From an uncultured Chlamydiae bacterium (lineage in GTDB: Bacteria > Chlamydiota > Chlamydiia > Chlamydiales > Parachlamydiaceae), in contig CAVWGN010000001.1 in the NCBI GenBank assembly GCA_963754655.1, forward strand, positions 3,040,001-3,104,000: a stretch of DNA of 64,000 nucleotides, in the 5' to 3' direction. The translations under genes were made by a program, and so were the position numbers. Shown piece after piece: positions 33,351 to 34,256 of the stretch. The notes beneath the pieces were generated by a model. The model worked only from the letters and a program-made list of their open reading frames with translations, was not told where the DNA came from and did not search any database. Numbering within the stretch: the first letter of the stretch is position 1; each line of letters starts with the position of its first letter.

Positions 33351-34256
33351 GGGGCTGCCAAAGCCCTGGTTGGGTGAGATGATTCTCTTGTAGTCCTTCG
33401 GACTACATGACGAGGGCTAATCTAACCCAGGGCGATGCCCTGGGCTATTTTATTTGAAGCCTTTCAGGCTCTGAACATTGGACATCTTTTTGTTAACCGT
33501 CTCTAAAATGATTGTGGAGTATTTACCATTTAATAGGCATGGCCCCTACAATCGTTATAGAAGAAGGTCTTCTAAAAATGTCCAATGTTCAGAGCCTGAA
33601 AGGCTTCAAATAAAATAGCCCAGGGCATCGCCCTGGGTTAGGGTGTTCATTTTGTGCAAAAAATGAGCTTTATTTTTCACAATAATTGGCATAGTTGAAT
33701 TGAAGGTCGCATGTTTATGCCGTCCTTTCAGGACTCGATGTCTTTTTGATAGAACCCAGGCCTCCGCTTCGCTGCGACCTGGGCTGTAACATGACGGCCC
33801 TTCAGGCCTTAACAAGAGATGTTTAAGTTCCTCTTCTATAGTCCCTAAATCATTTTTTTGTTAAGGCCTGAAGGGCAATCATGTTACAGCCCAGGTCGCA
33901 AGCGAAGCGGAGGCCTGGGCTGTAACATGACGGCCCTTCAGGCCTTAACAAGAGATGTTTAAGTCCCTCTTCTATAGTCCCTAAATCATCTTTTTGTTAA
34001 GGCCTGAAGGGCCGTCATGTTACAGCCCAGGTCGCAGCGAAGCGGAGGCCTGGGTTCTATCAAAAAGACATCGAGTCCTGAAAGGACGGCATAAACATGC
34101 GACCTTCAATTCAACTATGCCAATTATTGTGAAAAAATAAAGCTCATTTTTGCACAAAATGAACACCCTAGCCCTGGGTTAGATTAGCCCTCGTCATGTA
34201 GTCTGAAGGACTACAAGAGAATCATCTCCCCCCAATCAGGGCTTTGAAGCAGTCCC
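33351..34256. mobile_element. Palindromic element locus 2: REP-B doublet with element A (33639-34170) inserted in its right arm
   Basis: Left arm 33351-33486 is inverted against 33577-33638 plus 34180-34256; GCCCTGGGT is duplicated at 33630-33638 and 34171-34179. Confidence 0.9.

Follow-up and report, generated by a model that had tools for sequence, protein, structure and literature searches.

A gene-less MITE nested in REP hairpins of a Parachlamydiaceae genome, probably mobilised by an uncatalogued family of DDE transposases

The window, by which we mean the whole stretch of 64,000 nucleotides that was analysed (G000:C1:3040001-3104000, C1 being the genome contig), comes from an uncultured Chlamydiae bacterium of the Parachlamydiaceae whose genome is 3.16 Mb in size, has 39% GC and is 96.7% complete. 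A repeat that is here called element A is found at loci 1 to 4 of the window, its 20-nt end giving 7 matches there against 0 in 100 shuffles, and at locus 2 it is nested in a REP doublet as follows.

33367-33475, + strand: host REP doublet, left arm, uninterrupted (arm alignment)
33588-34237, - strand: right arm of the host REP doublet, interrupted by A into 33588-33638 and 34171-34237 (arm alignment)
33630-33638, + strand: left 9-bp target duplication GCCCTGGGT, in the stem of the host hairpin (sequence)
33639-34170, no strand: element A, a 532-bp near-palindromic MITE (ends and arm comparison)
33639-33687, + strand: left transposon end, 49 bp, with a 16-bp terminus common to full ISs and a TCAC box at +39 to +42
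33688-34121, no strand: cargo, an inner MITE with GGCAT ends around REP units
33755-33809, + strand: cargo REP hairpin unit 1 (Rfam Acido-Lenti-1 score)
33890-33945, + strand: further cargo REP hairpin unit
34000-34054, - strand: further cargo REP hairpin unit
34122-34170, - strand: right transposon end, 49 bp
34171-34179, + strand: right 9-bp target duplication GCCCTGGGT (sequence)

A preliminary description of this DNA had claimed a perfect 9-bp duplication at locus 2 and a right host arm that comes to resemble the left once A is removed, and both are borne out: GCCCTGGGT is present on either side of A, and in-silico excision of A with one repeat gives a right arm identical to the left at 103 of 109 positions, and at 99 of the last 100. 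Against empty alleles the offset is 9 in 24 matches. The 532 bp of this copy are made up of the modal 396-bp form plus a 136-bp internal duplication, and the nest as a whole has four layers, namely the host REP doublet, the ends of A, an inner MITE with 8-bp repeats and the REP doublet within it. The genes that flank the locus stand only 10 to ~100 bases apart in three congeneric genomes, and the whole nest is therefore lineage-specific. In the sequencing runs X1 and X2 the depth of A is far above that of the unique flanks and no contig runs across the locus; X1 is possibly the source sample, so these runs are not counted as support. A scan for promoters and terminators predicted 3 of each, where chance would give 1.5 and 1.3 respectively, and an Rfam scan gave nothing above the cut-off, its miRNA matches merely reflecting the fold-back.

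The remaining copies of A in the window, together with the repeats that are related to them, are these.

6540-6906, + strand: locus 1, A with its left end only, duplication not scorable
44717-45113, no strand: locus 3, A of 397 bp, flanks matching at 7/8 for 8 bp and 6/9 for 9 bp
59482-59574, + strand: fragment of a Y1 (HUH) transposase gene within the host doublet of locus 4 (75% over 32 aa, E 6e-9)
59651-60130, no strand: locus 4, A of 480 bp, flanks matching at 8/9, the mismatch being the base that touches A
60140-60283, no strand: 144-bp MITE of a sister IS, with CGGGACTTAAC ends, stacked beside A on the same target at locus 4
62975-63283, no strand: inner GGCAT unit lacking A ends, with an approximate boundary on the right

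The flank sequences quoted earlier for loci 1, 3 and 4 agree with the window sequence. No REP host was recognised around A at locus 3, and the right-hand neighbour of A at locus 4 is the 144-bp MITE, not host DNA. Locus 4 is contained in a nest of ~1.8 kb with several inverted-repeat layers (window 58790-60620), and a 647-aa ORF of ~50-residue repeats, spaced at 147-153 nt, is found at 60840-62908, a related motif also being present upstream at 60840.

Across the genome A has 186 ends and 82 two-ended copies, 43 of which are 392-398 bp long. It has terminal inverted repeats, is multicopy and is without a transposase gene, and these are the properties by which a MITE is recognised. Where ORFs do occur in long copies they belong to unrelated ISs inserted in A; at least four unrelated IS types are found there, some of them at fixed points of the cargo hairpins (G000:C1:8129-10073, 263509-265317, 1042576-1044793, 3109508-3112296 and others), and the ISs nested in A or nearby are presumably IS5-, IS256-, IS481- and IS701-like. 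There are also minimal copies of 36 bp that consist of two termini head to head (G000:C1:1334333-1334368 and 1366229-1366264), which probably arose from collapse of the palindrome.

The preliminary description proposed that all ends be collected and their flanks displayed as a logo. This gives a strong consensus, RCCCNGGGY, over 150 flanks: C is found at -8, -7 and -6 in 124, 135 and 141 of them, G at -4, -3 and -2 in 129, 143 and 128, and the base preceding A is C or T in 134. A mostly interrupts a REP at a fixed point, with a piece of it left on either side, which is the type 1 association that Tobes and Pareja describe for a REP-targeting IS. Evidence for duplication is much less uniform. 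Of the 82 pairs of flanks 75 were scored, 7 with out-of-register ends being left out, and compared with 5000 shuffles of flanks among copies; perfect 9-bp direct repeats flank only 3 of the 75 (2.0 +/- 1.3 in shuffled flanks, p = 0.33), direct repeats of at least 8/9 flank 16 (7.4 +/- 2.4, p = 0.001), and perfectly inverted 9-mers flank 20, against 2.9 expected and a number that 0 of the 5000 shuffles reach. Long inverted flanks are found in 15 of the 75. The offset from an empty allele could be measured for 40 of the 82 copies and is 9 in 13, 8 in 7 and scattered in 20; for the other 42 no candidate empty allele was found. One copy not located in a REP shows, beyond a 6-nt duplication of its end, a 9/9 repeat. 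As perfect repeats are rare genome-wide and the offsets are scattered, the duplication at locus 2 is real but untypical, and of the 8-9 bp originally claimed it is 9 bp, the modal offset, that stands, the cases of 8 bp being eroded or offset. A target consensus is thus present whilst most copies in this genome are without a clean duplication, two points on which the first reading had been made to depend; it survives as a DDE element that duplicates its target because 9 bp is supported by the offsets at empty sites, by the MITEs of other genomes and by full-length ISs.

These figures bear directly on the idea that most copies of A were spread passively, either through repeats that recombine with or convert one another or as passengers of REP doublets that HUH enzymes moved, in which case the locus 2 repeat would be a chance match of two palindromic stems. 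Perfect repeats at chance level, the strong enrichment of inverted flanks, the 15 copies with long ones and the half of the copies without an empty allele all speak for it, but the enrichment of repeats of at least 8/9, the modal offset of 9 and the exact restoration of the arm at locus 2 do not. Furthermore one variant of A occupies at least five flank classes, and so has crossed several host families, and the same ends are carried elsewhere by ISs and MITEs with 9/9 repeats, as described below. Passive spread would therefore seem improbable.

If A was inserted by a transposase with a 9-bp duplication, the question arises of how so many repeats were lost. Among substitutions private to one A element, 12 of 30 occur on both arms, and complementarity of the two bases that touch A is seen in 50 of 75 copies, 35 being expected. 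Thirteen pairs of flanks differ by a single mismatch, which is at an end position in 7, and 6 of these 7 leave the touching bases complementary; end-position mismatches alone prove little, because positions 1, 5 and 9 are also degenerate in the target. The most likely cause of the lost repeats and inverted flanks is self-templated conversion of the A palindrome, recombination between copies, as proposed for ISRm22 (PMC1525189), or smoothing during assembly being possible alternatives. After insertion a palindrome of ~400 bp may template on itself, or recombine with other copies, such that direct repeats become inverted ones. Long palindromic MITEs can thus lose duplications and gain inverted flanks, which will mislead tools that rely on perfect repeats for dating MITEs or for detecting them.

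What A carries is itself mobile. The inner MITE with GGCAT ends has 22 paired free copies in the genome, 7 of them in a different shell, and of the other 15 five have 8/8 repeats, five have 7/8 and five have 5/8 or fewer; in other genomes 8/8 repeats flank 5 of 7 closed elements with a GGCAT-type end. It had been suggested that A carries REP hairpins as cargo, and REP units are indeed carried, not as bare REPs but within this second MITE with 8-bp repeats of its own. The different shell around the inner unit (G000:C1:1081502-1081936 and others) has 16 ends and its end matches that of a broken transposase at C1:500735, which we take to be IS701-like. In another genome a contig (L215, G009:C34:1-1830) begins with a GGCAT end and contains a split ORF with a DxxH motif and weak ISH6/ISLre2 matches below the cut-off, and no homologue of this ORF was found in the present genome. 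From its end L215 is probably the IS of the inner MITE, and it may possibly represent a second uncatalogued Mutator-like family. The IS1595 family was also considered for the inner MITE and has no match in this genome.

The copy of A at C1:958107 has a longer second end, and of the four orphan copies of this long end three continue into a portion of the short one, which suggests an ancestral MITE of ~150 bp that received the inner element. A would then have begun as a two-ended MITE of this size; the inner MITE would have entered it, and the two arms would later have been made identical. The orphan copies are found within a block of tandem repeats (G000:C1:1896250, 1907641, 1914415 and 1921986), three of them beside a broken frame that by eye is thioredoxin-like (CxxC).

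Nine matches to Y1 (HUH) transposases are found in the genome. The host arm at locus 2 is similar to the flanks of two Y1 genes, those at G000:C1:2542121 and 2544251 (80% over 76 nt), and the cargo resembles the flank of that at G000:C1:395846 (89.6% over 106 nt), hence host and cargo hairpins each flank a Y1 gene elsewhere in the genome and are also dispersed, as is characteristic of REPtrons and REPINs. The Y1 proteins score above the IS200 cut-off of NCBIfam and below its cut-off for REP transposases, and by eye look like the class 3 TnpA-Y1 type in the part of the classification of PMC6006769 drawn on here. The cargo hairpins (33755-33809, 33890-33945 and 34000-34054) score 36.4-36.5 bits against an Rfam cut-off of 37 for Acido-Lenti-1, a near miss which suggests that this 'sRNA' motif is a REP of such Y1 genes. 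HUH enzymes would have provided the hairpins at an earlier stage, without having to act on A, and the earlier proposal of two transposition chemistries acting on the same loci holds as a layered history.

Ends of the A type also occur in other genomes. A scan of genome contigs found at least 46 loci, and since the search pattern demanded GGY ahead of the end the targets obtained in this way are biased. The exact 25-nt end of A has 0 matches in the genome contigs, the shorter pattern being the one that found them; the 16-bp end is present in genomes G005 and G009, which are not counted as independent of this set. Among the matches listed, most are from Parachlamydiaceae or Chlamydiae, and closed MITEs or ISs with A-type ends have 9/9 repeats in 13 of 23 cases, 7 of the 10 without a perfect repeat coming from one genome in which 0 of 7 are perfect. 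Many of these elements are 151-bp MITEs without the cargo of A. Two autonomous ISs with the ends of A also exist in other genomes. One, L112, is a frameshifted IS of 1693 bp whose ends are of the A type; it has a 9/9 repeat and stands in a stack next to a REP-carrying MITE. The other, L148 (G020:C180), has the same ends as A, a 98-aa coiled-coil-like ORF, an A-run at the junction and a second open frame of 453 aa. A metagenome scan with the L148 protein gave 1 weak locus.

Homologous ISs of 1.6-2.0 kb have terminal repeats that start with TAGGG, TAGGA or TGGG, and 9/9 repeats flank 10 of 18 loci examined together with 3 of 3 loci on Nostoc and Thiodictyon plasmids. Several of them use targets other than CCCNGGG and so this preference is not family-wide. 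The TCAC box at +39 is shared by A, L112, L148 and 11 of 54 non-redundant ends, the next best offset having 4 in a set that includes chance matches, and the first base is T in 94% of the 54 ends, the search pattern having allowed T or C. With the same ends on DDE ISs and a 9-bp duplication, the view of A as a DDE-type MITE is upheld. On this comparison of sequences we consider it likely, with good confidence, that A is a gene-less MITE whose ends match ISs of 1.7 kb elsewhere and which was probably spread by their DDE transposase, with a 9-bp duplication and, in this lineage, a likely preference for RCCCNGGGY, a palindrome that in this genome is almost confined to the stems of REP hairpins.

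In the genome itself, at 96.7% completeness, no close relative of the L148 transposase was found, the best matches being 27-34% identical, and the mobiliser of A is therefore assigned by identity of its ends alone. A transposase gene between A ends, which it had been proposed to look for, is accordingly found in other genomes (L148 and L112), the present one having only unrelated ISs in that position. Its nearest relatives here are two sister ISs. IS-B is present at 11 loci with open frames, is 30-34% identical to the L148 protein, abuts A at several loci and has 9/9 repeats around 9 of 10 paired copies, with nearly all targets consensus-like. IS-C is present at 1 locus and is 27% identical to the L148 protein; its 144-bp MITE has 161 ends and a full-length relative of 1786 bp at G000:C1:426687. 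Pairs of this 144-bp MITE also form gene-less composite transposons around ~370 bp of filler, with matching outer 9-mers (G000:C1:320713-321369, 982120-982774, 1957164-1957823 and others).

It could be argued that A is mobilised today by the IS-B transposase in spite of its different ends, a view that is compatible with the origin given above and departs from it on current activity. The open frames of IS-B, its identical target and duplication and its position next to A are in keeping with this, as is the small divergence of the A arms, in which a mean of only 1.75 of 120 bases differ from the consensus. Set against it, the ends of the two share only part of their first 7 bases, their transposases are 32% identical, and as IS-B keeps perfect repeats at 9 of 10 copies and A at 3 of 75, A is probably the older. 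We regard present-day mobilisation by IS-B as unlikely; rather, the IS to which A belongs would have been lost from this genome, leaving A probably dormant whilst the sister IS is still recent.

Why REP stems should be hit so often can be approached through the target itself. Of the 236 RCCCNGGGY sites on contig C1, repeats or their vicinity account for 224, unique ORFs for 11 and unique intergenic DNA for 1; a family end is adjacent to 101 of them, all of these in repeats, and 123 of the 135 empty sites are in repeats as well. These numbers allow another view, that the transposase reads the structure of a REP hairpin or cruciform, or a protein bound to it, and not the 9-bp sequence. That all 101 occupied sites are in repeats would fit, as would the 135 sites in unique DNA that match the looser RCCYNRGGY and yet have few insertions, and an IS in genome G033 that adjoins REP-like hairpins in 4 of 4 loci. 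The 101 of 101 is however partly so by construction, the element itself being a repeat, empty sites are mostly in repeats anyway, and the 12 unique sites include 11 that fall inside ORFs, where insertions would be selected against. In addition, where elements are stacked, the duplication that separates them lacks its own hairpin and yet serves again as a target. Structure reading is thus not a likely explanation, and a sequence preference with selection against gene hits is enough to account for the bias towards REPs. The suggestion that A targets the CCCWGGG stems of other REPs is correct insofar as A is found in CCCNGGG stems of REP-like hairpins, and as regards REP targeting as such goes further than is needed, the sequence preference being sufficient. 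Elements would be stacked because each insertion regenerates the target.

The enzyme that is likely to have mobilised A belongs to a family that is without a Pfam or NCBIfam entry and is predicted, largely from a structural model, to be a two-ORF DDE transposase like those of hAT, P and Mutator elements. Pfam and NCBIfam profiles run against 89 aligned members found no transposase family beyond single weak matches, which include DUF659 in 4 of the 89 (E 0.032), and a sequence-profile search of the PDB gave nothing below E 0.2. A profile of the family itself recovers 3,858 cluster representatives (50% identity) at E <= 0.001, and D88, D156, D182, R233, W243 and E353 show no variation in any of 89 sequences. 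The model of the transposase has a pLDDT of 90.8 and its best fold matches are Hermes (Z 15.8, rmsd 4.3, 313 aligned residues, 13% identity), the P element (12.7) and ISCth4 (12.0), the last of which serves as the p-MULT comparison. Its neighbours in the Atlas are unnamed, the nearest named ones being Mutator-like at 0.78-0.80, which is a lead only. The first ORF has weak coiled-coil matches only, and some homologues of 527-538 aa have an N-terminal coiled-coil-like stretch, in keeping with a first ORF that has been fused and with a frameshift that is programmed; a -1 frameshift at the A-run would join the coiled-coil ORF to the DDE ORF of ~450 aa. IS892 (ISNCY) is a possible candidate match to the family.

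ISAs1 and IS4 had been offered as examples of the enzyme, a suggestion that was not sustained, as the ISs with A ends encode a different protein that matches neither. ISAs1 is present in the genome as remnants only, one beginning with CAGGG and diverging after AGGG, and 0 of the 89 family members match it. Neither IS4 nor DDE_Tnp_1 is among the top 25 families listed for the 89 members, and there is none for P0002. A may alternatively be thought of as an ISAs1- or IS4-family MITE, or as an element targeting TA or CTAG with its true ends two bases further in. The ISAs1 remnants and the C or T before A in 134 of 150 flanks lend this something, but the divergent remnant end and the different protein count against the first part of it, and the 9-bp repeats, which lie outside the terminal TA and are of arbitrary sequence, against the second; we think it extremely improbable.

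More speculatively, and only as a possibility towards which we incline less than not, the IS family of A may be bacterial, large and uncatalogued, and among prokaryotic families may be the one most closely related to the eukaryotic hAT transposases. Its ends would be bipartite, some of its members would have a sequence-specific palindromic target of 9 bp, and its MITEs would time and again capture REP doublets and spread them. If this were true REPs would be able to disperse by a DDE route in addition to that offered by HUH enzymes. As a locus this is ordinary selfish DNA, and DDE elements that target REPs have already been published; A however links a MITE to an IS family missed by Pfam and NCBIfam, and thousands of 'hypothetical proteins' become readable as transposases. 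How hAT elements originated is a question on which the predicted Hermes-like fold may bear, and which becomes testable through members that have open frames and a defined target of 9 bp. A literature search covering titles and abstracts gave, among the papers listed, none on A or its IS family.

Among known systems A acts like the REP-targeting ISs, as a MITE of an uncatalogued DDE family. Such ISs include ISRm22 (IS4), ISPsy8 (IS3), ISPa11, ISPpu9/10 and ISRm19 (IS110) (Tobes and Pareja 2006, PMC1525189), as well as IS1397, IS621 and IS1594 (PMC3184786). As in the examples taken from the former account, A is a DDE element with a fixed break point in a GC-rich REP palindrome and a short duplication, and ISRm22 likewise has copies with mismatched repeats (PMC1525189). 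It differs from those examples in its transposase family, its 9-bp duplication, its non-autonomous nature, its REP cargo, its ~100 copies and its stacking with sister elements. Chunjie of Geobacter uraniireducens is a bacterial MITE with 9-bp repeats (PMC3184786, PMC10969869), and in the features given there A is similar, being a short element with terminal inverted repeats, 9-bp repeats and a stable fold-back. The host and cargo hairpins are like REPtrons and REPINs with class 3 TnpA-Y1 (Quentin et al. 2018, PMC6006769) in that they flank low-copy Y1 genes and are dispersed in many copies, and the flanks here have CnGA feet and the Y1 proteins a Y...Q motif as in class 3, not the Y...NP of class 2, the class being assigned by eye. 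Unlike the REPtrons and REPINs in the sections of that paper used here, the doublets in this genome are wrapped in or broken by DDE MITEs.

With regard to the transposase, p-MULT 1-5 include IS256, ISH6, ISLre2 and ISKra4/ISMich2 (Guerillot et al. 2014, PMC3942029). From the part of that work drawn on here, the family would share with p-MULT a predicted DDE RNase H core with a helical insert, DxxH and 8-9-bp repeats, and ISMich2 similarly has a pair of ORFs together with a -1 frameshift. It is distinguished from them by the position of DxxH (D182-x-x-H185), 26 residues after D156, the second aspartate, against 11-19, by the 197 residues from D156 to E353 against an insert of 99-138, possibly by ends that start mostly with T against a conserved terminal C, and by the lack of a profile match (PMC3942029). 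The likeness to hAT (Hermes) and to the P element lies in the model, where these are the best structural matches, in DxxH, in an invariant Arg that is predicted to lie in the insert and in the weak DUF659 matches. hAT transposases make an 8-bp duplication, have a BED zinc finger and form hairpins on the flanking DNA. The family of A, in contrast to hAT, is bacterial, is only 13% identical to Hermes, makes a 9-bp duplication and has a frameshifted first ORF that is coiled-coil-like.
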